Below, piece by piece: positions 2,422 to 62,705 of a stretch of 64,000 bases of DNA. Under the pieces are notes generated by a model, which made no database searches, was not told where the DNA came from, and saw only the letters and a list, made by a program, of their open reading frames with translations. The translations under genes and the position numbers were made by a program. Position 1 is the first letter of the stretch, and the number at the start of each line of letters is the position of its first letter. The DNA is from Candidatus Limnocylindria bacterium (GTDB lineage Bacteria; Chloroflexota; Limnocylindria; P2-11E), in contig DASRGG010000005.1 of assembly GCA_035651155.1 (NCBI GenBank), positions 74,503 to 138,502 on the forward strand, given 5' to 3'.

Positions 2422-4560
2422 CTACGGAAGCGAGGTCTGGACCGAGATGTTGCAGGTGCCGTTCGCTACGAGCAGCGGCAGCGTCGGGCTCGAGCCCGAG
2501 GTGATCACTGGACCGTAGTTGTCGGTACCTGCGGTGGTGGTCGAGCGGACCGTGTAGGTCGTCGAGCCACCGCTCGTGGTCTGCGGGTTGGTGGTCAGCA
2601 GCGTCGTCGACGTGCCCGAGTTACGGGAGAACGTGACCGAGTAGCTGCCGGACGACACGGTGTTGCCGAGCTGGTCACGGACCCTGACCGTCGCAACCGA
2701 CGTCGACGAACCGTCATTGACGATCGCGATCGGCGAGAACGAGCAGGTCAGGTGGTCCGCGCCGCCAGCGGTCCACGTCATCGTGGTCGTCACGCTGGTC
2801 AGGCTCGGCGAGGAGAACGTCACGGAGCAGGCGCTGTAGGCGCCGGCGCTCCTGAACGCGAAGGTCGCGCGGCCCGAGGACGCCGTGTCCGTGGTGCTGG
2901 CAACCGCAGCCGCGCCGCCGCCAGCGCCGATGCACGTGTTCGGGTCAAGGGTCGCGGTGACCACGACCGAGCCGGTCGGCCCGGTGACCCGCAGGCCGTT
3001 CACGTCCTGAACGAGGACGCGGACGATGATGCAGGCGGAGTCAGTGATCGTGCCCGCGGCGTAGTTCGCCTTGGTGCACGTGCCGTTCGCCGCCGCAGCC
3101 GGCTTCGGCGACGAGTTGTCCGCGACCGCGAGCTTGTTCGGCGCGCCGACGATCTGCGTCGTCAGCGTGGCCGACGTGCCCGCGATGGACGTGTCGTTCG
3201 TCGTGATCGCGATGATGCAGCTGCCAGGCGTGCTCGTCGACGTGAGCGTGAACGAGACCACGCCGCCCGCAGCGGTGGCCGAGCCACTACCGGCGGAAAC
3301 GCTGAAGCCGGTGCCGGTCGAGCCAGCGCTCAGGGTGCAGACGCTCGCGGAGCTGGAGTCACGCGTCGCGGTGATGACGGTCGAGTTGTCGCTGATCACG
3401 GTGTTGCCGTTGGCGTCCTGGATGGAGACCGTGAGCGCCGACGTCGACGCGGTGTCGGCCGCGATCGGGTTACGGCTCAGGCTGGCACCCGTCTTGGTGG
3501 CCGTGCCCGGGGCCGAGGTCGGAACGATCGCGTTGCAGCCGGTGACGCCCGTGCCGGAGACCGACACCTGCGCGCTACCGGTGTTCGTCGTCGTCGTGGC
3601 GGTCACCGAGGCGACGCCGGCCGACGGCGAGATCGTCTGCGGAGACCCACCGTTCAGCGTGATGAGGGTGGGCGTGTTGTTCGTGAACGTCAGGGCCGGC
3701 GAGCTCGCGTTCGTAACGGTGTTGCCGTTCGCGTCCTTGAGCGTCGCCGTGAACACGATCGTGTTGCTGCCGTTCGCGATGGTCGAGGTCGGGTTGGCGG
3801 AGCAGCTGACCTGCGTCGCCGGGCCGAAGACGCTGACCGGCGCGGAGCCGGTGAGGCCGTCAGAGCTCGTCGCGATGACGGTGCAGGGCTGCGTGGCCGA
3901 GTTCGTCGCCGTGGCGGCGAAGAGGCCCGCCGAGGTGATCGCGCCGCAGCCACCGGTGACCGACCAGCTGATGGTCGCGCCGGTGCCTGCGCCGCTCGCG
4001 GTGAACTGCTGGGTGCCGCCGACGGCCAGCGAGGCCGAGGCCGGCGAGAGGGTCAGGCCACCAGTCGTCGAGCCAGGGGTGGTGTTGACCTGGAAGTACC
4101 CCTGGGGACGGAGCATGAGGCCGCTCGCGATGAGTCCGACGTCACCGTTGAAGGTGGCGGCGGTGCCCGCCGGGGTGCCCGCCGGAACGGTGAAGTTGTA
4201 GATGAAGAAACCGTTCTGGCCCGGGGCAACAGCGGCGGAAACGGTCGCGTACACCGTGCTCGAGAACCATCCCGAGGCGTACGCGGCGTTCGGCGACGCG
4301 ACGTTGCACGTCACCTTGTCGGCGGCGCACACGAGGAGCCCGACGACGCCGGGCTGCCAGGTCTGCGTGCCGTCGTTGAAGAAGATGGCCGAGAACTGAC
4401 CCGAGGCACCGGCCGGCAAGTTGGTGAAGACCGACTCACCGGAGTAGCTCGAGGAGTATCCGCCACCTGCGAGGGCATTGGCCTGGACGGACGTGCTGAA
4501 CGTCAGCAGGAGGCTGAACGCCATCACGAGCGTCAGGGCCGTGCTTGCGATCCTTCGCAT
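2422..4560 (-). CDS. Secreted protein with signal peptide and tandem Big_1 (invasin/intimin-type bacterial Ig-like) repeats
   Basis: N-terminal signal peptide MRRIASTALTLVMAFSLLLTFSTSVQA. Repeated about 90-aa units with Big_1-like signatures (TATLKDANGNTVTN, TVSIQDANGNTV, VRVLVQDVNGLRV, VRVRDQLGNTV). Thr/Ser/Gly rich. Good RBS (GGAAGG) before the ATG. Confidence 0.6.
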   Translation of the reverse strand: MRRIASTALTLVMAFSLLLTFSTSVQANALAGGGYSSSYSGESVFTNLPAGASGQFSAIFFNDGTQTWQPGVVGLLVCAADKVTCNVASPNAAYASGWFSSTVYATVSAAVAPGQNGFFIYNFTVPAGTPAGTAATFNGDVGLIASGLMLRPQGYFQVNTTPGSTTGGLTLSPASASLAVGGTQQFTASGAGTGATISWSVTGGCGAITSAGLFAATATNSATQPCTVIATSSDGLTGSAPVSVFGPATQVSCSANPTSTIANGSNTIVFTATLKDANGNTVTNASSPALTFTNNTPTLITLNGGSPQTISPSAGVASVTATTTTNTGSAQVSVSGTGVTGCNAIVPTSAPGTATKTGASLSRNPIAADTASTSALTVSIQDANGNTVISDNSTVITATRDSSSASVCTLSAGSTGTGFSVSAGSGSATAAGGVVSFTLTSTSTPGSCIIAITTNDTSIAGTSATLTTQIVGAPNKLAVADNSSPKPAAAANGTCTKANYAAGTITDSACIIVRVLVQDVNGLRVTGPTGSVVVTATLDPNTCIGAGGGAAAVASTTDTASSGRATFAFRSAGAYSACSVTFSSPSLTSVTTTMTWTAGGADHLTCSFSPIAIVNDGSSTSVATVRVRDQLGNTVSSGSYSVTFSRNSGTSTTLLTTNPQTTSGGSTTYTVRSTTTAGTDNYGPVITSGSSPTLPLLVANGTCNISVQTSLP

Positions 4561-4865
4561 GTGAACCTTCCTTCTAGAGATTTGATTCGCCTACTTGGTC
4601 GCGATGCGCACGAGGTGATCGCGCGGATGAGTCCTTGTTCCGATGAGCGTGTCCCCCGGTGCTCAGTCACCTCCTTCGATCGAGGTTTTGGCCCCGGAGG
4701 CAACTTCCCGGGGACCTTCGCCAATCGGACGCGGGGACAGAGACGAGGCGGCCAGCCGCGGAACGGCTGCCACCAGGCCGGGTTGTACCAGAAGCGGCCA
4801 AAAGCCGCCAGCCGGCCTCTCCGGCCCGTTGCCATCAAGACGCACAGGTGAACGGGTTTGTCGCA

Positions 4866-7289
4866 TCACGACCGGCCTCCCGGGAGCGTGACGTAGAAGC
4901 CCTCGCGGCCACCCTGCCACGCGCGGCCCAAGAGATCGAACATCGGTTCGGATGCATCTGCTGGCTCGATGTGCGCGACGCCTCCGGGCTGCGCGAGGCC
5001 GTAGGCGAGCACCCCGCCAGCCCGGCTGACGTAGTAGACGAACCCGTTCTGGTCCATCGCGAAGCTCGTGATCGCGCGGCCGACGAGGCCAGCCGTCACG
5101 CTGAGGCCGCCCGTCTGAGCGGGGCGCAATGAGAACGTCTGGCCCGTGTCGGTCCCGACCCAAACCGTGCCCTGGCGGTCGACGGACAGGGCGGTGATCG
5201 AGCCGCCATGTGCGAGCGAGTACTCCGTGGTCTTCGCCGTCAGCGGGTCGTAGACGTCGATCGCCTGACGGTCACCGCCGGCGGTCCAGATGCGCCCGAG
5301 CGGATCGGACGCCACCGCCGCGAGTCCCAGGCCGACCGGGATGCGCTGGACCTGTCCGGTGCGCGGGTCGTAGCTCACGAGGCCGTCCGCGCCGGTCGCG
5401 AGCCAGAGCCGCTCGTCGGGGGAGGCCGTGATCGCCGACGCGTTCGTCGCGTAGGCCAGCGGGATCTTCACGTACTGCAACGTGCTGACCGTGAGCGCGT
5501 AGACCATGCTCGACGGACCGTCGACGAAGTACACGTGGTTCCGGCTGGCCGCCATGCTCGTGATCGTCGCGCCGGCGGGAAGCACCGCGAGCTGCAGCAG
5601 ATCGCCGTTCTGCATGTGCAGCGCGTTGACGCGGTTCGCGTTGTCGAGATACCAGATGCGCGTCCCGTCGCTCGCGACGCGCGTCGGTCGCTGCGACGGG
5701 GAGACGCTCACGAAGTAGGTGCCCGGCCACAGCGGCCGCGCGTTCAGCGGCACGAGGTCATCCTTCTCTTGGGGCGCGACCACGACCGCCGGCTGCGTCG
5801 CCGCGGGCGTCGGTGTCGCGGATGGACCAGGCGTCGTGATCGCGGTCGGCAGCGGTGTGGCTGTCGACGCCGGGTTTGGCGATGTCGCGGCGGCCGTCGT
5901 GAGCGAGGACGGCAACGGAACGTCCTTCACGTCGTTCGCGCCGATCACGGCGAACTTGCGCTCCGACGCGTCGTACGCGAGATCGCGGGCGTTCGCCGGC
6001 GCGTCGATGGTCGCCGCGGGGAGCCCATCTGACGTGAGGATCGTGATGACTCCCCTCCCGGCGAAGTCCGCCAGCACGGCGAACTGGCCGCCCGGGAGCG
6101 CCGCGACCGCGCGCGGCGTTCCGCCGATCGCGAGGCTGGCACCACCACGGCCGAAGGTGATCGTCGCGCCCGCGGCGCCGTTCGAGAGCACCACGTAGTT
6201 GTCGCCACCGATCGCGAACGCGGCGGCGACACCGCCGGGCGCGCTCGCGAGCGGTGCGTAGGTCGCGGCGTCCGCGAGGATGGACGACTTCGCGGAGACG
6301 AGGAGCGCACGCCGGCCGTTCGGCTCGATGACGATGATCTGCGGCGCGACGTCCACCTGGTGGACCGACTCGACCTGCTTGGTGCCGCCGTCGATCGTGG
6401 AGATGACGCCCGTGCCGGACGAGGCCGCGCCGGGCGTCGCGCTCGGACCGGGTCCGACGACCGAGGTCACGACGAGGTTGCCCTTGCCGTCGACCTGAAG
6501 GCTCGTCGGCGTGCCGGGAACGCTCACCGCGGTCGCGGCGGTGATCGCCATGCTCGAGCCGTCGATCTCGGTGACCGTCTTCGCCGTCGAGTCGAGCACG
6601 ATGACGGTGTTCGTCGTGAGGTTGATGGCGAGCGCGGTCGGCCGGCCGCCCACGTGGACGATCGCCTTCTGCGCGAGCGTCGTCAGGTCGAGCGCGGCGA
6701 CCGTCGCCTGATCGGGCTTCAGCACGTAGAGGGTGTTCGTGTACGGGTTGCGCACCGACTGCTGCGCGGCCGCCACGAGCGGCGTGTTCGGCGTTGCGGT
6801 CACCGTCGGCCCACCCTGCGGCAGGCTCAGGACGAGGATGAGCGAGATGGCCGTGACGACGGCGAGGGTCGGGAGCGGCCACGCGCTCACGAGGCGCGGC
6901 ACGCGCACGGTGCGCTCGCGGCCGAGGGCACCGATCGCGGCGTCGACGCGAGCCGACGGGATCGCCACGGGCATCGCCGCGAGCGTCCGGTCCACGGCGG
7001 ACCAGTCGCGGACGGCGGCGCGGCAGTCGCCGCACACGGCAAGGTGCGCGGAGGCCATCGCGGCCTCCTCCGGGCCGAGCTCCCGGTCGATGTTCGCGGA
7101 GAGAAATGCCTCTGCCGCGCCGCAGGAGAGCGCGGGCGAGGCGGCGACGTCCTCGTCGACGGCCGCAAAGAGGCGCAGCGCGCCCGCGCAGGAGGCGCAT
7201 TCGCCGAGGTGGGCCGCGGCGGAGGTGGCGTCGGAAGGCGTGAGCTCGCCGTCGAGGTAGGCGGACAGGAGGTCGTCGCTGAGGTGCAT
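4866..7289 (-). CDS. Anti-sigma factor: two tandem zinc-finger (ZAS, HxxxCxxC) motifs, one TM helix, extracytoplasmic beta-propeller domain
   Basis: The N-terminus carries LSAYLDGELTPSDATSAAAHLGECASC and a second copy LSANIDRELGPEEAAMASAHLAVCGDC, giving two HxxxCxxC motifs. TM segment WPLPTLAVVTAISLILVLSL. The C-terminal half has repeated YVTN/Vgb-lyase-like blades (LWLATGADGLVSYDPRTG, RIWTAGGDRQAIDVYDP, TVWVGTDTGQTFSL). Confidence 0.65.
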   Translation of the reverse strand: MHLSDDLLSAYLDGELTPSDATSAAAHLGECASCAGALRLFAAVDEDVAASPALSCGAAEAFLSANIDRELGPEEAAMASAHLAVCGDCRAAVRDWSAVDRTLAAMPVAIPSARVDAAIGALGRERTVRVPRLVSAWPLPTLAVVTAISLILVLSLPQGGPTVTATPNTPLVAAAQQSVRNPYTNTLYVLKPDQATVAALDLTTLAQKAIVHVGGRPTALAINLTTNTVIVLDSTAKTVTEIDGSSMAITAATAVSVPGTPTSLQVDGKGNLVVTSVVGPGPSATPGAASSGTGVISTIDGGTKQVESVHQVDVAPQIIVIEPNGRRALLVSAKSSILADAATYAPLASAPGGVAAAFAIGGDNYVVLSNGAAGATITFGRGGASLAIGGTPRAVAALPGGQFAVLADFAGRGVITILTSDGLPAATIDAPANARDLAYDASERKFAVIGANDVKDVPLPSSLTTAAATSPNPASTATPLPTAITTPGPSATPTPAATQPAVVVAPQEKDDLVPLNARPLWPGTYFVSVSPSQRPTRVASDGTRIWYLDNANRVNALHMQNGDLLQLAVLPAGATITSMAASRNHVYFVDGPSSMVYALTVSTLQYVKIPLAYATNASAITASPDERLWLATGADGLVSYDPRTGQVQRIPVGLGLAAVASDPLGRIWTAGGDRQAIDVYDPLTAKTTEYSLAHGGSITALSVDRQGTVWVGTDTGQTFSLRPAQTGGLSVTAGLVGRAITSFAMDQNGFVYYVSRAGGVLAYGLAQPGGVAHIEPADASEPMFDLLGRAWQGGREGFYVTLPGGRS

Positions 7290-53018: not shown

Positions 53019-53915
53019 CTACGCGAGCTTCGCGGTGAGCCGAAGACCGTCGCGAAGGCTCGTCTTCGCGCGCCAGAGTCCGGTGTGGAGGGCCTTGTGC
53101 GCGTCGAGGCAGGAGCGCTGGATCTCGACCGCGCGTGCCGGCGCGTGGCGGACGCCGGCCGGCGGGCCGAGGACCTCGGTCATGGCCGCGATGAGGTCGT
53201 TCACGCTCGTCGCGACGCCGGTGCCGATGTTGAAGACGCCGTGCCACGACCCCGCGAAGGAGGCCGTGACCGCGTCGATCACGTCTCCGACGTAGACGTA
53301 ATCGCGCTGGGCGGTGCCGTCGCCGAACACCGTGAGCGGCTCCTTGCGGCGCCACAGGCCGAGGAAGATCGCGATGACGCCGCCCTCGAGGTCCTGCCGT
53401 TGCCGCGGGCCGAACACGTTCGCGAGCCGCAGCGTGATCGACGGCACCTGCGCCTCCTCGACGATGCGCTCGCCCGCGAGCTTGAACCGGCCGTAGTTCG
53501 AATCGGGCCGCGCGGGAGTGCGCTCGCTCGCGCAGACCGGCGTCTCGCCGTACATCGCGCCGCCGGTGGAGATGTTCACCAGCATCTGGACGTGCCGGTC
53601 CTCGGCGAGCCGGGCCACGTTCGCCGTGCCGTCGACGATGACCCGGCGGTAGAGATCGGCCTGCTCCATCGATTCGACGACCTTCGTCTTCGCGGCGCAG
53701 TGCACGATCGCGTCGAAGCCCTCGCCGTGGACGGCACGGGCGAGCGACGTCGCGTCGCTGATGTCCGCGAGGCGGAACGGGATGTCCGGCGCGAGGTTCG
53801 CGCGGTCGCCCGTCGACAGGTCGTCGACGGCGACGACGAGGTCGCCGCGCGCGACGAGCGCGTCCACGATGTTGCTGCCGACGAATCCGGCGCCGCCGGT
53901 GACGAGCACACGCAA
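53019..53915 (-). CDS. NAD-dependent nucleoside-diphosphate-sugar epimerase (UDP-glucose 4-epimerase-like)
   Basis: MRVLVTGGAGFVGSNIVDAL (Rossmann). YxxxK is in NYGRFK. About 298 aa. Confidence 0.75.
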   Translation of the reverse strand: MRVLVTGGAGFVGSNIVDALVARGDLVVAVDDLSTGDRANLAPDIPFRLADISDATSLARAVHGEGFDAIVHCAAKTKVVESMEQADLYRRVIVDGTANVARLAEDRHVQMLVNISTGGAMYGETPVCASERTPARPDSNYGRFKLAGERIVEEAQVPSITLRLANVFGPRQRQDLEGGVIAIFLGLWRRKEPLTVFGDGTAQRDYVYVGDVIDAVTASFAGSWHGVFNIGTGVATSVNDLIAAMTEVLGPPAGVRHAPARAVEIQRSCLDAHKALHTGLWRAKTSLRDGLRLTAKLA

Positions 53916-54066
53916 GGCTTGGTCGCTCCCTTATCGATGTGGATGACTTTGTGGACGAGATGGTGCACGAGAGCCGTTCCGCCGGAGCGCTTCCGACAGT
54001 AGCGTTCGACACGTCGCGGGGCTTCCTCCGCGCGACGCGCGATGGCGGAGGCTCCGAGATGCCACG

Positions 54067-54082
54067 TAGAACACCCGTTCTA
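54067..54082. promoter_or_regulatory. LexA-box-like palindrome TAGAAC-N4-GTTCTA about 12 nt upstream of dnaB paralog 1
   Basis: gTAGAACacccGTTCTAga. Shares the GAAC-N4-GTTC core with the operator in front of lexA at about 62071 (aGAACatccGTTCgg). Confidence 0.4.
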
Positions 54083-54093
54083 GACTTGTCGGC

Positions 54094-56022
54094 GTGACCC
54101 TCGAGACACGCGTCGATCGCCAGGTCCCGTTCGACGAGGCCGCCGAGCAGCACGTCCTCGGCAGCCTGCTCATCGATCGCGACGCGATCTTCAAGATCGC
54201 CGACCTCCTCGCGACGAGCGACTTCTACATCGCGCGGCACCAGCGCATCTACGCGGCGATCTACGAGCTCCTGCAGCGCCGCGAGCGCATCGACCCGCTC
54301 ACGGTGCAGGTCGAGCTCGCGCGCCGCGAGGAGCTCGACCGCGTCGGCGGCGCGGCGTATCTGCGCACGCTCGTCGAGATCGTCGCGACGGCCGTCGAGA
54401 TCGAGCGGTACGCGCGCGTCGTGCTCGACAAGGCCATCCTGCGGCGTCTGCTGAACGCGGCGGCGCTCATCGCGGCCGACGCGTACGCCGAGCCGACGGA
54501 TATCCCGCTCACGCTGGACAAGGCCGAGCAGCGGATCTTCGCGCTGCGCGACGACACCACCAACGCGCAGCTGCGGCACATCCAGACGGCCCTTCAGGAC
54601 AACTTCCAGCACCTGACCGAGCGCATGGACCGCCCGTACGAGGTGTCCGGCATCCCGAGCGGCTTCAAGGAGATCGACTTCTTCACCGAGGGCTTCACGC
54701 AGGGCGACCTCGTCGTCCTCGCCGCGCGGCCGTCGGTCGGCAAGACGAGCCTCGCGCTGGCGATGGCCTTCAACATGGCCAAGCGCGGGCATCCGACGCT
54801 CGTCTTCTCGCTCGAGATGGACGCCAAGCAGATCGTGTCGCGCTTCCTCGCGATGAACAGCCGCACCGATCTCCTCGCGCTGCGCACCGGCAACGTCTTC
54901 GATACGGACGCGGCGAGCGCGCTCGCGGGCGTGCCGATCCTCATCGACGACACGCCGGGCCTCTCGATCATGGAGCTGCGCACGAAGGCGCGCCGCGCGA
55001 GCACCAACGATCGCCTCGAGGCGATCATCGTCGACTACATCCAGCTCATGCGCACCGGCGGCGACGAGGAGAACCGCGTCCAGGAGATCGCGACGATCAC
55101 GCGCAACCTGAAGTCGCTCGCGCGCGAGCTGAACGTCGTGATCATCGGCCTCTCGCAGCTCTCGCGCGCCGCGGGCGACGCGGGGCTCGAGCCGAAGCTC
55201 TCGACCCTTCGAGAATGCGTCACCGGTGACACGCTGGTGTGCCTCGCGGATGGCGGCCGCATCCCGATCCGAGAGCTGGTCGGCACGGCACCGGAAGTCT
55301 TCTCGGTAGCGAACGGCAGGATCGTGAAGGCACGAGCGGATCTCGTGTGGCGCGTCGGCGTCCGCCCCGTCTACCGCGTGAAGCTCGCGAGCGGCCGCGA
55401 GATACGCGCGACGGCAGACCATCGTCTTCACGCGTTCGGCGCATGGAAGCGGGTTCGCGACCTTCACGCCGGCGAGCGACTCGCGCTCGTACGCCAGCTT
55501 CCCGAACCCGAAGCGCGCACGTCTTCACGGTCGGAACCGCGCCGCGAGACGATGCGTCGGCGCGGCGTCACGACGCGCGCCATGGCCACGCCGCGGGGCA
55601 CACGGTACGGCGGAAGCTCACATTTCGCGTTCGCGCCCTCACGCGCGACGGTCGCCGACTACGCCCGGCCGCTTGACGACTCCGAGCTACAAGACGTCGC
55701 GACGAGCGATCTGTACTGGGATCGGGTCGCCGCCATCGAGCCGGCCGGCGAAGAAGCGGTGTTCGATCTGACCGTGCCGGGACCGGCGTCCTGGCTCGCC
55801 GACGGCATCGTCTCGCACAATTCGGGCGCCATCGAGCAGGACGCGGACATCGTGCTCATGCTTTGGAAGGACAAGGAGGAGACGCCCGCGGGCGCGCCGC
55901 GTCTCATCCACGGCAGCGTCGCGAAGAACCGCAACGGCCCCACGGGCATCTTCCAGCTCCTCTTCGCCGGCGAGCAGGCACGCTTCTTCAGCAAGGCCGC
56001 CGACGACCAGATGCCGGTATGA
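54094..56022 (+). CDS. dnaB: Replicative DNA helicase DnaB paralog 1, interrupted by a 202-aa mini-intein
   Basis: GTG start. N-terminal DnaB domain, Walker A ARPSVGKTSL, helicase motifs, and the C-extein SGAIEQDADIV...KNRNGPTG. The intein runs from Cys375 (LRE/CVTGDTLVCL) to VSHN/S. The stop overlaps the start of paralog 2 (ATGA). Confidence 0.85.
   Translation: MTLETRVDRQVPFDEAAEQHVLGSLLIDRDAIFKIADLLATSDFYIARHQRIYAAIYELLQRRERIDPLTVQVELARREELDRVGGAAYLRTLVEIVATAVEIERYARVVLDKAILRRLLNAAALIAADAYAEPTDIPLTLDKAEQRIFALRDDTTNAQLRHIQTALQDNFQHLTERMDRPYEVSGIPSGFKEIDFFTEGFTQGDLVVLAARPSVGKTSLALAMAFNMAKRGHPTLVFSLEMDAKQIVSRFLAMNSRTDLLALRTGNVFDTDAASALAGVPILIDDTPGLSIMELRTKARRASTNDRLEAIIVDYIQLMRTGGDEENRVQEIATITRNLKSLARELNVVIIGLSQLSRAAGDAGLEPKLSTLRECVTGDTLVCLADGGRIPIRELVGTAPEVFSVANGRIVKARADLVWRVGVRPVYRVKLASGREIRATADHRLHAFGAWKRVRDLHAGERLALVRQLPEPEARTSSRSEPRRETMRRRGVTTRAMATPRGTRYGGSSHFAFAPSRATVADYARPLDDSELQDVATSDLYWDRVAAIEPAGEEAVFDLTVPGPASWLADGIVSHNSGAIEQDADIVLMLWKDKEETPAGAPRLIHGSVAKNRNGPTGIFQLLFAGEQARFFSKAADDQMPV
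55216..55821 (+). mobile_element. Mini-intein in DnaB paralog 1 (no endonuclease domain; low-complexity internal linker)
   Basis: Block A CVTGDTLV and block G IVSHN followed by Ser. No LAGLIDADG/HNH motifs. The internal segment ...EPEARTSSRSEPRRETMRRRGVTTRAMATPRGTRYGGSS... is low complexity. Confidence 0.7.
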
Positions 56023-58592
56023 CGCTGGCGCTCGAGCGCACCGGGCCGAAGCCGCCGCCGGAGAAGCCGGAGGCCGAGGCGAGCCTCCTCGGCTCGATCC
56101 TCATCGACGCCCACGTCTACGAGGAGACCGTCCGCGGTCGCATCGCCCCGGCGGAGCTCTCGCGCGAGCCGCATCGTCTCGTGCTCGGCGCGATCGAACG
56201 CGTGTGGGAGCGCGGTGAGCCGCTGGGCTTCCAGAGCGTGCAGGCGGACCTCGCGGCGCGCGGCGAGCTCGACACGGTCGGCGGCGCGCAGTTCCTCGTC
56301 GGCCTCATGCAGAACGTCCCCACGGTCGCGCACGCCGAGACCTACGCGACGATCGTCGAGCGCACCGCCCTGCTGCGACGCCTCATCGGCGCGGCCAACG
56401 AGATCGCCCATCTCGCGCTGACGCGCGAGGACGCGAAGAGCGCGGTGGTGGACGCGCAGGAGCTGCTGTTCGCGGTGAGCGAGTCGAACCTGCACCGCGA
56501 CGTCGTGCCGCTCGATATCGCGCTGCGCCGCTTCGCCGATCAGATCAGCGCGCGCGCCGACGATCACCACGAGGGCCTCCCCACCGGCTTCGCCTCCCTC
56601 GACGCCAAGACCGGCGGCCTCCAGCGATCGGACCTCATCCTCCTCGCCGGACGCCCGGGCCTCGGAAAGACGAGCTTCGCGCTGAACATCGTGTGGAACG
56701 CCGCGGCCGCGGGAAAGACCTGCGCGATCTTCTCCCTGGAGATGAGCGAGATGCAGGTCGTGCAGCGCCTCATCTCGATGACCAGCGAGATCGACGGGAA
56801 CCGCATGCGACGCGGGCGGCTCTCGCCGCAGGAATTCGTGTCGATCTCCGACGCGTCGGACCGGCTGCAGAAGGCGCCGATCTACGTCGAGGAGTCGAGC
56901 CAGCTCACCGTGACCGACATCCTCGCGAAGTCCCGGCGGCTGCAGGCCGAGCGCGGACTCGACCTCCTGGTGATCGACTACCTCCAGCTCATCGAGGGCG
57001 CGGGCGACGACGAGAGCCGCGTGCTCGAGGTCGCGCGCATCAGCCGGTCGCTCAAGGCCATCGCGCGCGAGCTGCAGGTCCCGGTGCTCGCCCTCTCGCA
57101 GCTCTCGCGCCAGATCGAGACGCGCGGCACCGAGCCGATGCTGTCGGATCTGAGGGAATGCGTGACGGGTGACACGCGCGTGATCGACGCAACATCCGGA
57201 CACTGGGTGCCGGTGCGGTCCATCCGTCCTGGCACACGTATCGTCGCAGTCGACGCACGCCAGCGAACCGGCATCTTTGAGGTCGCGGATGTCTGGAGCA
57301 CCGGTCGGAAGCCGGTGTACAAGGTCACCTCGCAGAGCGGCAGGGTGATCCGCGCCACTGCGAACCATCCCTTTCTCACCTCGCAGGGGTGGCGGCCTCT
57401 CGCCGAGCTGGGGGAATCGGATCTCCTCATCGCCACAGCGATGCGTCTCCCTGATCACGGTACCGAACGCGATGAACGCGGCGACCTCTGCAGACTGCTC
57501 GGCTATCTGGTCGGCGATGGCACGTATCGCAAATGGGGGGCCGTGGGATTCATCTCCAGTGATCCGGCGACCTTCGACGACGTCGTCGACGTCGTCACCC
57601 GACGCTTCGCTGGTGTCACGCCACGAGTGAAACGGCACACGGAGGGCTATCGCGAGGTGGAGTTCCGGCGCCTCTACGACAACGGCTATGGCAAGCCTTA
57701 CGGGAATCCGCTACGCGAGTGGTTGCGCGAGCTCGGCCTTCATGGCCAAACGGATGAGCGAAAGCGTGTCCCGGACTTCGTCTTCGGAGCTGGTGTCGCG
57801 GGCGTCGCCGAGTTCATCGCGGGATATCTCGCCTCCGACGGCTGCGTGAAATCCCGTGAGGTGCCACACAAGCGCAGACGTTGGTCGATCCAGTTCGACA
57901 CCGTCAATCCTCTCCTGGCTGAGGACATCCAGGCCCTTCTCCTGCGCCTGGGCGTCACGGCAACGATCCGACCGGGCGCTTGGAACACGAAGAGCACGCA
58001 GCCGATCTATCGCATCGACGTCCATCAAACGTGGGTGAATCTGGCGCGCTTTGCGCGCCTCGTGCCTGTCCGCGGTCGGAAGGCGGCGCTTCTACAGGAG
58101 CTCCTCGCCGACCAGCCGATCCACGAGACTTCCCCCGGCGTCTATTCGCTACCGGCGGAGCTCAGCGTCCACTTGAAGCGACTGCAGCCCGGATGGAAGG
58201 ACCAGCACAAGCGCATGCGACGATCCACCGCGCTTGCCTGGGCGGAGCGCACTGATGACGAGCTACTGCGCGTGCATGCCGAGGGAGACCTCCTCTGGGA
58301 ACGCATCCGATCCGTCGTGCCGGAGGGGGAGGACGAGGTCTTCGACCTTCGCGTCCCGGGCAGCGGCAACTTCCTCGCGAACGGATTCGTCGTGCATAAC
58401 TCCGGGGCCCTCGAGGCCGACGCCGACCTCGTGATGTTCCTGTGGCAGAAGGACCGCAAGGACCGCGACGAGAGCGTGGTGCGGCTCAAGCTGGCCAAGC
58501 ACCGCAACGGTCCGACCGGCGACTTCGATCTGCACTTCCAGTCGGAGCTCACGCGCTTCCGCGATCTCGGGGAGACGCGCGCCGAGGTCTAG
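56019..58592 (+). CDS. dnaB: Replicative DNA helicase DnaB paralog 2, interrupted by a 414-aa intein with LAGLIDADG homing endonuclease
   Basis: MTLALERTGPKPPPEKPEAEASLLGSILID... Walker A GRPGLGKTSF. Intein inserted at the identical site (LSDLRE/CVTGDTRV ... FVVHN/SGALEADAD). Confidence 0.85.
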   Translation: MTLALERTGPKPPPEKPEAEASLLGSILIDAHVYEETVRGRIAPAELSREPHRLVLGAIERVWERGEPLGFQSVQADLAARGELDTVGGAQFLVGLMQNVPTVAHAETYATIVERTALLRRLIGAANEIAHLALTREDAKSAVVDAQELLFAVSESNLHRDVVPLDIALRRFADQISARADDHHEGLPTGFASLDAKTGGLQRSDLILLAGRPGLGKTSFALNIVWNAAAAGKTCAIFSLEMSEMQVVQRLISMTSEIDGNRMRRGRLSPQEFVSISDASDRLQKAPIYVEESSQLTVTDILAKSRRLQAERGLDLLVIDYLQLIEGAGDDESRVLEVARISRSLKAIARELQVPVLALSQLSRQIETRGTEPMLSDLRECVTGDTRVIDATSGHWVPVRSIRPGTRIVAVDARQRTGIFEVADVWSTGRKPVYKVTSQSGRVIRATANHPFLTSQGWRPLAELGESDLLIATAMRLPDHGTERDERGDLCRLLGYLVGDGTYRKWGAVGFISSDPATFDDVVDVVTRRFAGVTPRVKRHTEGYREVEFRRLYDNGYGKPYGNPLREWLRELGLHGQTDERKRVPDFVFGAGVAGVAEFIAGYLASDGCVKSREVPHKRRRWSIQFDTVNPLLAEDIQALLLRLGVTATIRPGAWNTKSTQPIYRIDVHQTWVNLARFARLVPVRGRKAALLQELLADQPIHETSPGVYSLPAELSVHLKRLQPGWKDQHKRMRRSTALAWAERTDDELLRVHAEGDLLWERIRSVVPEGEDEVFDLRVPGSGNFLANGFVVHNSGALEADADLVMFLWQKDRKDRDESVVRLKLAKHRNGPTGDFDLHFQSELTRFRDLGETRAEV
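57159..58400 (+). mobile_element. Full-length intein with LAGLIDADG homing-endonuclease domain in DnaB paralog 2
   Basis: Block A CVTGDTRV. Two LAGLIDADG motifs (LLGYLVGDGTY and IAGYLASDGCV). Block G VVHN followed by Ser. Confidence 0.75.
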
Positions 58593-60124
58593 CTCCGGTG
58601 AGCCACGCGGTTGCGGCCGGATTCCTTCGCCGCGTACAAACCGCGGTCGCCTGCGCGGAAGAGGTCGTCGGCGGTCCGGCCGTCTTCGGGATACGACGCG
58701 ATGCCCACGCTCACGGTCGCGTCGATCGTCTCGCCGGAGAGCGTCCGGTACCGCTGGCCGGCGACCGAGATGCGGAGGCGCTCCGCGGCCGCGAGCGCGT
58801 CCTTCGCGCCGGTGCGCGGCAGCACCACGACGAACTCGTCGCCACCGAAGCGCGCGAGGACGTCGGCGGTGCGCAGCGACGCGCGCATCGTCTCGGTGAG
58901 CCGCACGAGAAGGCGATTGCCCTCGGCGTGCCCGTAGCGGTCGTTCACCTGCTTCATGCAGTCGCCGTCGACGACGAGGAGCGAGACGTGGTCGTCATGC
59001 CGGCGCGCCGACTCGACCTCCTCCCGCAGCCGCTGCATGACGTGCCTGCTGTTGTACGCGCCGGTGAGCTCGTCGGTAACGGAGAGCCGGCGGATCTCCT
59101 CGTGCGCCTCCGCCGCCGCGATCGCGAGCGCGGCCTGGCTCGCGAGCGTGCGCGCGAAGCGGAAGTGATCGTCGGTGTACGACCGCACGCCCAGCTTCAC
59201 GGCGCGGGCGACGCCGACGAGGCGGTCCTCGACGAGGAGCGGGATCGCGATCGCGGACTTGGAGTGCGGCGGCGTGCCGTGGACGGCGCCCGGGCGCGGG
59301 TCGGCGCCGACGTCGTCGATGCGGACCGGCTCGCGGTGCAGCGCGGTCCATCCCACCAGGCCCTCGCCGAGCCGCAGTGGCATCGCGGCGAGGTTGCGCT
59401 CGTAGTCGGCGCCGTAGACGTCGGCGTTGAAGGAGAGCGCCGCCATGCGCAGGCGCTCGCTCCGCGCGTCCCAGAGGTACACCGCCACGGAGTCGGAGGT
59501 CGTGAGCTGCCGGAGCGACCCGCAGACCGAGTCGAGCGTCGCGGAAAGGTCGAGCGCGGCCGCGCGCTGCGCGACCTCGCTCACGGCCTGGAGCTCGGCG
59601 ATGTCCTTCTGCCGGCCCTGGTGCTGGCGCGCGTGCATGAGACCCATCGCGAGGAGACGCGCGTACGCGACCAGCAGCTGCTCGTCGGCGGGCGAGAACG
59701 CCGCGACCTGGTCGCTCTCGATCCCGAGGACGCCGAGAGCGCGCCCGGCGGCGGCGATCGGGACGCAGATCTCCGAGCGGCACGACGGCAGGACCGGGAT
59801 GTAACGGTCGTCCGCGAGGACGTCGGGGACGTTCACGACGCGGCCGCTCGTGAAGCAGGCGCCCGAGACGCCCGCGTCGTCGCGCGCCCGGAAGCCGCCG
59901 GCCGACACGACCTCCGTGAGCGGCCCGGCGAATGCCGCCGTGTACAGCTCCCCGTGCTGATCGTCGTGGAGCAGGACGTAGCGCGCGCCGTACCCGTACG
60001 GATCGCCGAGCAGATCCGTCGCGAGCGCGAGCAGCTTCTGCTCGTCGCTCGCCGCGACGAGCAGCTGCTCGGCGGTGCGCACGAGCAGGTCGATGTCCGC
60101 GCGCGTTCCGTTCGGGACCGTCAT
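58589..60124 (-). CDS. Diguanylate cyclase with tandem GAF sensor domains (GAF-GAF-GGDEF)
   Basis: Two GAF-like regions, then LTGAYNSRH...RFGGDEFVVVL...GRNRV, the GGDEF active-site motif. Convergent with dnaB2, the stops overlapping by 4 nt. Confidence 0.85.
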   Translation of the reverse strand: MTVPNGTRADIDLLVRTAEQLLVAASDEQKLLALATDLLGDPYGYGARYVLLHDDQHGELYTAAFAGPLTEVVSAGGFRARDDAGVSGACFTSGRVVNVPDVLADDRYIPVLPSCRSEICVPIAAAGRALGVLGIESDQVAAFSPADEQLLVAYARLLAMGLMHARQHQGRQKDIAELQAVSEVAQRAAALDLSATLDSVCGSLRQLTTSDSVAVYLWDARSERLRMAALSFNADVYGADYERNLAAMPLRLGEGLVGWTALHREPVRIDDVGADPRPGAVHGTPPHSKSAIAIPLLVEDRLVGVARAVKLGVRSYTDDHFRFARTLASQAALAIAAAEAHEEIRRLSVTDELTGAYNSRHVMQRLREEVESARRHDDHVSLLVVDGDCMKQVNDRYGHAEGNRLLVRLTETMRASLRTADVLARFGGDEFVVVLPRTGAKDALAAAERLRISVAGQRYRTLSGETIDATVSVGIASYPEDGRTADDLFRAGDRGLYAAKESGRNRVAHRS

Positions 60125-61292: not shown

Positions 61293-62076
61293 CGTGGACT
61301 TCCCCCTGCGGGAACCGTGCCCGCAGCGCGCGTACGGCGGCCGACGACACCGCGTCGCGGTCCGCAGCCCAGAACGACACGAGGTAATGCGCCTTTCCGT
61401 CGGACACGCTCCGGAGCTCGACGGACGGCTTTGGGTCGGCGCTGATCCCGGGAAGGTCGGCGAGGGCCGCGCGGATCTCGTCCGCGGCGGTCGGCCGCTC
61501 GCCGTCGTCGACGACGAGCCAGAGCGTGCCGCGACGCGTCGGGAAGCGCGTCATGTTCACGACCGACGCGTTCATGAACACGCCGTTCGGCACGATGACC
61601 TCGCGGTTGTCCGGGGTCCTCAGCATCGTCGTGCGGAACGCGATCTCCTCGACGACGCCGGATTGACCGGCGACCTCGATCGTGTCCCCGATGCGGAAGG
61701 GCCGCTCGACCAGGACCCAGATGCCGGCGAAGAAGTTCTTGAGGATGTCCTGCAGCGACAGCCCGACGACGATGCCGAGCACGCTGAACGAGGTGAGGAT
61801 CCAGCCGAACGCGTCGCGGGTGTAGATCGCGAGCACCCCGAGGGCGCCCACCAGGATCACGACGACCTGCGCGAGGTTCCCGAGGAGGATCGTGACGTTC
61901 GCCTGGGCTCGGCTCCGCGCGAGCACGCGCATCGTGGTCCGCCGGACCGCCCGGGCGAGCAGCAGGGCCACCACGGCGACGAGCAGGGCCCAGATCGTCC
62001 GGGTCGCGTAGTCGACGAGCAGCGCGGAATCCAGCGGCATGGGTCGAATCATGCCCCGCACTTGACAGGAGAACAT
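61285..62076 (-). CDS. Mechanosensitive ion channel, MscS family
   Basis: TM helices followed by ILKNFFAGIWVLVERPFRIGDTIEVAGQSGVVEEIAFRTTMLRTPDNREVIVPN, the MscS beta-domain signature. Confidence 0.7.
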   Translation of the reverse strand: MFSCQVRGMIRPMPLDSALLVDYATRTIWALLVAVVALLLARAVRRTTMRVLARSRAQANVTILLGNLAQVVVILVGALGVLAIYTRDAFGWILTSFSVLGIVVGLSLQDILKNFFAGIWVLVERPFRIGDTIEVAGQSGVVEEIAFRTTMLRTPDNREVIVPNGVFMNASVVNMTRFPTRRGTLWLVVDDGERPTAADEIRAALADLPGISADPKPSVELRSVSDGKAHYLVSFWAADRDAVSSAAVRALRARFPQGEVHGG

Positions 62077-62090
62077 CCGTTCGGTATGGT
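62062..62090 (+). promoter_or_regulatory. lexA promoter with LexA operator (Cheo/Gram-positive-type GAAC-N4-GTTC box)
   Basis: TTGACA(-35)-ggaGAACATCCGTTCgg-TATGGT(-10), 7 nt before the GTG of lexA. The box sits in the spacer, as expected for autoregulation. Confidence 0.55.
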
Positions 62091-62096
62091 GCCAGC

Positions 62097-62705
62097 GTGA
62101 CGAAGCAGGACCAGCAGCGAGCCGAGCGGATCCTCGAGTTCATCCGCGAGCGCATCTCGGAGCAGGGCTACCCCCCGACGGTGCGCGAGATCGCGGAGGC
62201 GGTCGGCCTCGCGTCGACCTCGGCGGTGCATCACCACCTGCTCAAGCTCGAGCGGGAGGGCAGGCTCCAGAAGGACGCGACGCGCTCGCGCGCGCTCGCG
62301 ATACCGGGTTCGCTCGGCGGTCGGGTCGTCCAGGCGCCCATCGTCGGCGAGATCGCCGCCGGGGAGCCCATCTACGCGTACGAGAACAAGGACGAGCATC
62401 TCTCGATCCCCGGCGAGCTGGCCGGCCGCGGCAAGGACACCTTCGTGCTGCGCGTGCGCGGCAAGTCGATGATCGAGGACCACATCGACGACGGCGACTA
62501 CGTCGTCGTGCAGTCGCAGTCGACGGCGCGCGACGGTGACATCGTGGTGGCGCTCCTCGAGGACAGCCGCGCGACGCTGAAGCGCTTCTTCCGCGAGAAG
62601 GACCGCGTGCGCCTGCAGCCGGCCAACGGTCAGATGCAGCCCATCTACACGCGGGACATCCAGATCCAAGGAAAAGTGATCGGCGTCATCCGCCGGCTCG
62701 CGTAG
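62097..62705 (+). CDS. lexA: SOS repressor LexA
   Basis: GTG start. Winged HTH (TVREIAEAVGLASTSAVHHHLLKLEREG), cleavage site AGEP (Ala-Gly), and the S24 peptidase Ser/Lys pair (GKSM...RLQPAN). Confidence 0.9.
   Translation: MTKQDQQRAERILEFIRERISEQGYPPTVREIAEAVGLASTSAVHHHLLKLEREGRLQKDATRSRALAIPGSLGGRVVQAPIVGEIAAGEPIYAYENKDEHLSIPGELAGRGKDTFVLRVRGKSMIEDHIDDGDYVVVQSQSTARDGDIVVALLEDSRATLKRFFREKDRVRLQPANGQMQPIYTRDIQIQGKVIGVIRRLA

Follow-up and report, generated by a model that had tools for sequence, protein, structure and literature searches.

A 64,000-nucleotide stretch of a Candidatus Limnocylindria genome (Chloroflexota; contig DASRGG010000005.1, positions 74,503 to 138,502), referred to at its full length as the window, carries two tandem, translationally coupled genes for DnaB-type helicases, dnaB1 and dnaB2. 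We find that this pair is conserved across the class behind a LexA operator, an arrangement that suggests, but does not prove, a bacterial replicative helicase made of two kinds of subunit. Our preferred reading, predicted from the genes and given a probability of roughly 0.55, is that the products B1 and B2 form a mixed (B1·B2)3 replicative helicase. The DnaB hexamer is a trimer of dimers in its N-terminal collar, where two conformations alternate from one protomer to the next. A (B1·B2)3 ring would match this collar and would be a natural outcome of gene duplication. The stricter version of this idea, an obligate heterohexamer in which the two trimer-of-dimers conformers became two genes whose supply is set by the SOS (DNA-damage response) repressor, is in our view about an even bet.

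Both genes encode complete DnaB proteins interrupted by an intein. dnaB1 (54094..56022, plus strand) starts with GTG and encodes a 642-residue precursor, composed of an N-extein of 374, an intein of 202 and a C-extein of 66 amino acids (aa), which would be spliced to a DnaB of 440 aa. dnaB2 (56019..58592, plus strand) starts with ATG, and its 857-residue precursor (380, 414 and 63 aa, in the same order) would yield a DnaB of 443 aa. The dnaB1 stop codon TGA (56020-56022) overlaps the dnaB2 ATG (56019-56021) within a shared ATGA (56019..56022, plus strand), so that the genes share 4 nucleotides (nt). Pfam finds the DnaB N-terminal domain, the DnaB_C domain and the Intein_splicing domain in both precursors (PF00772, PF03796 and PF14890). 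On TIGR00665, the NCBIfam equivalog model for DnaB (cut-off 385.25 bits), the spliced exteins score 430.6 bits for B1 and 444.3 bits for B2. The best solved matches are Geobacillus DnaB structures in both cases, 2r6a for B1 (E = 1e-92) and 2vye for B2 (E = 5e-99). The Walker A GKT, the Glu of SLEM, the Walker B DY, the Gln of SQLSR and the K-x-RNG finger are invariant across both ortholog families in about 77 species; mapped on Geobacillus DnaB, the catalytic positions include D320, Q362 and R381-G384. Both paralogs therefore look catalytically competent, and the possibility that either is a pseudogene or an inactive copy is ruled out because the ATPase motifs are invariant in both families. 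An earlier reading of this DNA, made from the letters alone (the sequence-only reading), had described two full-length, coupled and only moderately similar paralogs with intact helicase motifs, the first stopping on the ATGA that starts the second. The domains, coordinates and invariant motifs bear this out, and the exteins are 38% identical.

The surroundings are best explained as the chromosomal replicative-helicase locus of this genome. The contig also occurs in public metagenome assemblies, and close homologs of both proteins carry Candidatus Limnocylindria or Chloroflexota annotation. The genes lie among purA, an epimerase gene, rplI and lexA in a conserved chromosomal synteny, and purA and rplI are the usual neighborhood of dnaB. 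Neither the phage_DnaB model TIGR03600 (333.5 and 332.6 bits against a cut-off of 498.65) nor NF040583, the model for the DnaB of the SPI-7 island (311 and 308 against 655), reaches its threshold. On the strength of the synteny and these scores, we reject the idea that the second dnaB came from a prophage or plasmid. On the 3′ side, a convergent GAF-GAF-GGDEF gene (58589..60124, minus strand) has a stop codon overlapping that of dnaB2 by 4 nt (58589-58592); a scan of 53800-58900 predicted no intrinsic terminator between the two.

The strongest evidence that the two genes belong together is comparative. Scanning one genome per species returned 80 related loci from about 77 species. dnaB2 follows dnaB1 directly in every locus with enough 3′ DNA, and the 4-nt overlap is present in 74/74 loci that reach the junction, as ATGA in 68, GTGA in 4 and TTGA in 2. 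No conserved Shine–Dalgarno sequence was found ahead of dnaB2 across these loci. The dnaB1 orthologs in the 80 loci are 66-94% identical to the window gene product, and the dnaB2 orthologs, always immediately after dnaB1, 68-94%. Among the matches listed, each paralog has more than 100 ortholog clusters at an identity of at least 76%, and most listed orthologs are intein-free, with lengths of about 440 aa for B1 and about 443-446 aa for B2. Contigs of equal length among the matches to B1 and to B2 had already hinted that the two genes lie together. In the crown group, neither gene ever occurs alone. A separate housekeeping dnaB was found in none of the related loci, a statement about the loci examined and not about whole genomes. 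Since dnaB2 follows dnaB1 with a 4-nt overlap in 74/74 loci, the tandem, coupled pair is a character of the class rather than a peculiarity of one genome. The sequence-only reading had proposed asking whether the clade has one dnaB or two; the pair is present in every crown locus with enough 3′ DNA, and that reading had missed that the pair, its overlap and its upstream box are class-wide.

The two families also evolve alike. Their mean pairwise distances are similar (0.285 and 0.271), which indicates similar constraint, and their distance matrices correlate at r = 0.95. With LexA as the control, the partial correlation between B1 and B2 is 0.79, compared with 0.25-0.33 for each helicase paired with LexA. 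The paralogs thus always co-occur and are arranged for co-expression, as expected of the members of a heteromeric ring (74/74 loci, r = 0.95). Two oddities of the sample deserve mention. Five loci (L004, L021, L022, L056 and L064) are dnaB-pair contigs in metagenome-assembled genomes (MAGs) labelled Acidiferrales, Udaeobacter, Bathyarchaeia or Saccharimonadales, labels that probably reflect binning contamination in public MAGs. Two further loci (L033 and L065) are separate contigs of one MAG, GL30_DN_metabat_152, each with a dnaB1 that is 74-75% identical to that of the window, which points to a strain mixture or a duplicated locus.

The pair is preceded by a palindrome of the LexA-box type. 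The sequence TAGAACACCCGTTCTA (54067..54082; TAGAAC-N4-GTTCTA, with the core GAAC-N4-GTTC at 54069-54080) ends 11 nt before the dnaB1 GTG. It lies in the spacer of a putative promoter, formed by a −35 hexamer ATGCCA (54059..54064, plus strand; 4/6 matches to the consensus) and a −10 hexamer TAGACT (54081..54086, plus strand), and reaches 2 nt into the −10. The −35 and −10 elements are 16 nt apart, with the box in between. The lexA gene of the window (62097..62705, plus strand) encodes a protein of 202 aa that presumably represses the dnaB1-dnaB2 operon, and has the same core in its own promoter (62062..62090, plus strand): AGAACATCCGTTCG lies between the −35 TTGACA (62062-67) and the −10 TATGGT (62085-90), with GAACATCCGTTC at 62071-82. 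In Firmicutes and Actinobacteria, experiments have established GAAC-N4-GTTC as the LexA motif, and variants of it are reported from Chloroflexi (PMC4951493). The palindrome thus combines what is expected of a LexA operator, a position in a promoter and a core common to the lexA promoter of the same organism. A cleavable repressor is encoded as well: the LexA protein has LexA_DNA_bind and Peptidase_S24 domains, and its translation shows the Ala-Gly cleavage site (AAG) and the GKSM and LKRF motifs.

Within the window, the box is only weakly above chance, with 3 GAAC-N4-GTTC found against 0.61 expected and 4/100 shuffles reaching 3. The third perfect core, GAACATCGGTTC at 4938-4949, falls within the 3′ end of a large open reading frame (ORF; 4866..7289) on the minus strand, has no promoter context and is probably a chance occurrence. 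It is the comparative locus data, not the count in the window, that make the box at dnaB1 decisive. A perfect core stands 20-55 nt upstream of dnaB1 in 80/80 loci with a readable upstream region. In 54 loci, lexA lies a few kilobases downstream of dnaB2, and in 54/54 of these the same core sits between TTGACA and the −10. Altogether, 818 kb of related loci contain 132 perfect cores, of which 78 precede dnaB1, 53 precede lexA and 1 lies elsewhere, where about 7 would be expected from base composition. The arms are invariant and the N4 spacer is variable, with R at its first position and mostly Y at its last. The sequence-only reading had likened the palindrome to the lexA operator, and the placement of 131/132 perfect sites at dnaB1 or lexA promoters vindicates the comparison. 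Its proposed scan for further boxes has been carried out as far as these 818 kb reach, with sites almost only at the two genes. Its description of an SOS-regulated “second” helicase did not hold up, given that the box precedes the whole operon in the usual dnaB neighborhood and that the loci contain no separate housekeeping dnaB.

The promoter itself can be traced across species. A −10-like TAnnnT directly follows GTTC in most of the 78 loci, TAGACT being the commonest form, and many orthologous loci have TTGACA at the −35 position of dnaB1. In the window, the dnaB1 GTG stands 7 nt after the −10 TAGACT, and the mRNA is probably leaderless. A subgroup of species has a GGAGG leader ahead of dnaB1, which supports the placement of the promoter. 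From these sequences we infer that one putative promoter drives both dnaB genes, that the LexA box covers its spacer and −10, and that the LexA regulon of the class includes the entire dnaB1-dnaB2 operon, with LexA binding predicted. The lexA gene of the window also looks leaderless, its −10 TATGGT ending 6 nt before the GTG. A polymerase gene of the dinB type (IMS family) begins about 300 nt after lexA and runs from 63011 to the end of the window; no perfect box was found in the window between lexA and its start, and the gene may be co-transcribed with lexA. In a single-dnaB Limnocylindrales MAG (L085), two tandem perfect LexA boxes (4671-4717) lie upstream of an unannotated minus-strand ORF of 90 aa (4344..4616), a candidate small SOS gene.

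The paralogs have diverged in complementary ways. B1 and B2 are 36-38% identical to each other, and the mean identity of either one to 101 unrelated DnaB cluster representatives is about 39%. As near-universal we counted the 95 alignment columns with a conservation of at least 85% among those 101 other DnaBs. Each paralog retains 84/95 of these columns, but not the same 84, so that neither has the full set; what one has lost the other keeps, and within each family the losses are fixed. In B2, the changes affect FY (to LS) and a conserved Asp (D to G) of the N-terminal domain, the IDD motif (to VEE), an otherwise conserved Arg and the Gln of IEQDAD. In B1, they fall on five positions in the H3-H4 loop, corresponding to P356, A359, E368, R370 and D379 of Geobacillus DnaB.

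Related lineages preserve what may be the steps of this divergence. P0296, a single-copy DnaB encoded in Limnocylindrales MAGs, shares 45% identity with B1 and with B2 and retains 22/22 of the residues altered in one or the other. Its gene is the sole dnaB of a 14-kb locus, where it immediately follows lexA and has rplI, a DUF1232 gene and a dinB-type polymerase gene as neighbors. In a basal lineage (L084 and L088), the neighborhood is the same and dnaB1 and dnaB2 are 150-255 nt apart. There, B1 is nearly canonical, with 17-18/22 residues retained, and B2 has already diverged; L084 also has a LexA box upstream of dnaB1. An ORF encoding an acidic protein of 84 aa (L084 7585-7839) fills the gap between the two genes of that locus and overlaps the dnaB2 start; it is absent from the clade of the window. 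A plausible series therefore leads from a single lexA-linked dnaB, to a spaced pair with a diverged B2, and finally to an overlapping pair whose B1 has diverged as well. P0295, which resembles B1 but carries a foreign C-terminal extension, looked chimeric and was set aside. In a neighbor-joining tree, each paralog family was supported in 30/30 bootstraps. The tree was not used to decide between duplication and transfer: it does not support B1 and B2 as exclusive sisters, so duplication in place rests on synteny and not on the tree.

Both genes also carry an intein, and we conclude that the two are selfish elements that inserted independently at a recognized hot spot of DnaB, outside the core design of the helicase. 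Both lie between the E and S of LRE/SGA[IL]E (a slash marks the junction). The dnaB1 element is a mini-intein of 202 aa without endonuclease (55216..55821, plus strand); its Cys1, block B TADH and terminal SHN/S are matched by Cys1, TANH and VHN/S in the 414-aa intein of dnaB2 (57159..58400, plus strand). Both have the features of class 1 inteins, and splicing is predicted to restore LRESGA[IL]E as found in intein-free orthologs. LLGYLVGDG and FIAGYLASDG in the dnaB2 intein are a pair of LAGLIDADG motifs, and this intein alone gives a match to Pfam LAGLIDADG_3 (PF14528); on these predicted motifs it qualifies as a LAGLIDADG endonuclease intein. The dnaB1 intein has no such motif, its core being deleted. 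Splitting of the precursors and Pfam thus agree with the sequence-only reading on inteins of 202 and 414 aa after LRE at an identical extein site. On Geobacillus DnaB, the insertion falls between E382 and S383, inside what we take to be the single-stranded DNA (ssDNA)-binding loop R381/E382/G384 of the DnaB-ssDNA structure, in motif H4. Three intein sites are described in DnaB, of which a and c lie two residues apart in the DNA-binding motif H4 (Novikova et al., PMC4760082). Both junction types, RE/SG and RESG/S, occur among our database matches, so that the insertions sit at a known site. A literature search for the extein peptide SIEQD gave no match.

The two inteins have separate histories. 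By BLAST-anchored parsing of the junctions, about 20 of about 77 species carry an intein in dnaB1, always at RE/SG and mostly of 419-425 aa; mini-inteins are found in the window (202 aa) and in L077 (175 aa). In its splicing blocks, the mini-intein of the window is 53-75% identical to full-size dnaB1-type inteins of 17 other species, the highest value being to L036. It aligns end to end with dnaB1-type inteins of about 419 aa except for an internal gap of about 217 residues at the LAGLIDADG core. Because of this alignment, we regard the mini-intein as an internal-deletion derivative of a dnaB1-type intein of about 420 aa, its sequence indicating that the endonuclease was lost within the dnaB1 lineage. 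Inteins in dnaB2 are rare, being present in the window and in L063 among the loci and in a few metagenomic proteins, some as mini-inteins. They are 48-60% identical to RE/SG-site inteins of other DnaBs, some from MAGs labelled Ktedonobacteraceae and Armatimonadetes, and relatives in this range also occupy the RE/SG site in dnaB2 of a few Limnocylindria. By comparison, dnaB1-type and dnaB2-type inteins are about 30% identical over their full length and about 40% in the splicing blocks (36-45% for the two in the window), and the dnaB1 type scores slightly higher against RESG/S-site inteins (35-37% identity) than against the dnaB2 type. Since the two types are only about 30% identical and belong to separate lineages, their sequences favor colonization of the two genes by different intein lineages and do not support recent homing between the paralogs. 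As a separate observation, a second Cys occurs at position 9 (CVTGDTLVC, 55216-55242 in the window) in the dnaB1-type inteins of 13/18 species (the window and L036-L082), where the dnaB2 type has Ile. Redox-sensitive splicing has reportedly been seen in a mycobacterial DnaB intein, and by analogy a Cys1-Cys9 disulfide could make splicing of dnaB1-type inteins redox-sensitive.

These elements can be assembled into a working model of the mixed helicase. dnaB1 would be translated from a leaderless mRNA, and LexA would hold the supply of helicase low. Upon DNA damage, RecA-stimulated cleavage of LexA would let both subunits rise together, with ribosomes that finish dnaB1 re-initiating on dnaB2 to give a roughly equimolar output. 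Once the inteins had spliced out, the resulting DnaBs of 440 and 443 aa would co-assemble as a mixed hexamer, most simply (B1·B2)3, in which each paralog supplies features lost by the other. The strict co-occurrence, the overlap without a conserved ribosome-binding site for dnaB2, the equal constraint, the correlated distances and the complementary loss of residues would all be expected if the two proteins were parts of one complex.

Several considerations weigh against this model. Co-assembly is a prediction from the genes. Two helicases with nothing more in common than their function or their pattern of expression would also be expected to show gene overlap and correlated rates. Both proteins have complete ATPase sites, and either could in principle form its own hexamer. 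That the paralogs make up for each other's lost residues is likewise a prediction. A third canonical dnaB, or the loader genes dciA or dnaC, may lie outside the loci examined. B1 and B2 were exclusive sisters in only 1/30 neighbor-joining bootstraps. Finally, a strict sigma-70 scan of 53800-58900 calls no dnaB1 promoter, for which reason the promoter is inferred from its conservation across species; LexA binding and the leaderless start are likewise predictions.

The most serious competing explanation, which we consider unlikely although it deserves attention, is that B1 and B2 each build a homohexamer of their own and divide the work, for example between oriC-dependent replication and fork restart or repair, their genes being merely co-transcribed from an SOS promoter. 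Two proteins that keep every ATPase and arginine-finger motif and both pass the DnaB equivalog model could work in this manner; a DNA-damage operator on the operon would suit a repair-linked role, and the spaced genes of the basal lineage indicate that tight coupling is not ancestral. However, separate rings do not readily account for a strict overlap in 74/74 loci with no conserved ribosome-binding site for dnaB2, which is typical of subunits made at a fixed ratio, or for the absence of either gene alone in the crown group. Nor would they explain why each paralog has lost near-universal residues that the other keeps, or why their rates covary well beyond those of neighboring genes. It is less probable still that one paralog is an accessory that does not translocate and serves the other, true replicative helicase as a regulator, as a primase adaptor or by opening the ring in the manner of a loader. 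The order of divergence is compatible with such a division of labor, since B2 was the first to change (FY to LS and D to G in its N-terminal domain) and basal B1 remained nearly canonical; the later loss by crown-group B1 of conserved residues beside the ssDNA-binding loop could be read the same way, and no loader gene occurs in the loci examined. Against it, the catalytic residues are invariant in both families in about 77 species, both proteins are full length and score 430-444 bits on the equivalog model, the two are under equal evolutionary constraint, and no paralog-specific loss of an ATPase motif was found.

The sequence-only reading had instead supposed that an intein homed from one paralog to the other and then lost its endonuclease; in a fuller form of this scenario, the second dnaB would be an extra, SOS-specific helicase of this genome, possibly derived from a mobile element. 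We consider it very improbable. The extein site is identical in the two genes, LRESGA[IL]E is common to both paralogs, which makes cross-homing conceivable in principle, and the dnaB1 intein did lose its endonuclease. That part of the proposal stands. Descent of the mini-intein from the dnaB2 intein is not supported, as it derives from the dnaB1 type and resembles the full-size inteins of 17 species. The low identity between the two lineages contradicts recent homing, and each type is nearer to other intein lineages, the dnaB2 type to RE/SG-site inteins of other DnaBs, including some from other phyla. The notion of an extra helicase is opposed by a pair that is class-wide and syntenic, by scores below the phage_DnaB and SPI-7-island cut-offs and by a box predicted to control the whole operon. 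The mixed B1·B2 ring thus remains the reading that we prefer.

It is useful to compare the pair with known systems. The DnaBs of Geobacillus stearothermophilus and G. kaustophilus (2r6a, 4esv, 2vye) share their two-domain architecture with B1 and B2, in which every ATPase motif examined is conserved. To our knowledge, characterized DnaBs are single-gene products and have been treated as homohexamers; here, by contrast, two paralogs of 36-38% identity are co-encoded with a 4-nt overlap and have lost different residues. A search of open-access papers and bioRxiv preprints found nothing relevant on a tandem, paralogous or heterohexameric DnaB. A possible parallel is the eukaryotic MCM2-7 helicase, which also consists of duplicated ring-ATPase paralogs that always occur together and show subunit-specific divergence. 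The differences are substantial: MCM2-7 is an AAA+ helicase of 3′-5′ polarity, whereas DnaB has an unrelated, RecA-like fold and 5′-3′ polarity, and there are six MCM paralogs against two here, where neither active site is degenerate and co-assembly is a prediction.

The closest regulatory precedent is the dnaB gene of Mycobacterium tuberculosis (Rv0058), which is damage-inducible, contains an intein and has a GAAC-N4-GTTC-type motif in its promoter region. Its SOS-box motif and a damage induction that is partly RecA-dependent have been described (PMC3381160, PMC8151990), as has its intein (PMC6195587). A LexA box at dnaB is therefore less unusual than had been supposed from the sequence of the window (PMC3381160). 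M. tuberculosis differs in having a single gene, at which LexA binding is weak or uncertain by chromatin immunoprecipitation sequencing; in Limnocylindria, a perfect core is present in every species examined and overlaps the −10. The inteins likewise have relatives in the cyanobacterial Ssp and Npu DnaB mini-inteins (1mi8, 4o1r), homologous class 1 inteins of motif H4 (E = 4e-20 to 4o1r) among which LAGLIDADG and mini forms both occur. They differ from the RESG/S inteins (P0267, P0269, P0276) in their RE/SG junction, and from known H4-site inteins in that the paired genes of a single operon carry two lineages at one and the same site. In sum, DnaB, H4-site inteins, the GAAC-N4-GTTC LexA box and an SOS box at dnaB are each known. 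What appears from the sequences to be new is the conserved, translationally coupled pair of dnaB paralogs, of which we found no earlier description in the literature covered.

The bacterial replicative helicase is the textbook homohexamer, with a three-fold N-terminal collar set on a six-fold motor and subunits that pass through sequential states on DNA. The known structural asymmetry of DnaB has to be studied with identical subunits. If our reading is correct, a natural, class-wide DnaB made from two genes would make it possible to mutate the subunit positions one by one and to see how a ring helicase subfunctionalizes after duplication, and (B1·B2)3 would be a bacterial counterpart of the MCM2-7 principle. 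The lineage offers a stepwise series for such studies, from a single copy to a spaced pair to an overlapping pair. The inteins add little to this picture; theirs is another independent invasion of the DnaB H4 hot spot and the least remarkable aspect of the locus. Should B1 and B2 instead form separate rings, the locus would still encode a conserved, damage-regulated second DnaB. More broadly, the dnaB pair would tie the supply of helicase to the DNA-damage response in an abundant, uncultured group of soil and freshwater bacteria.

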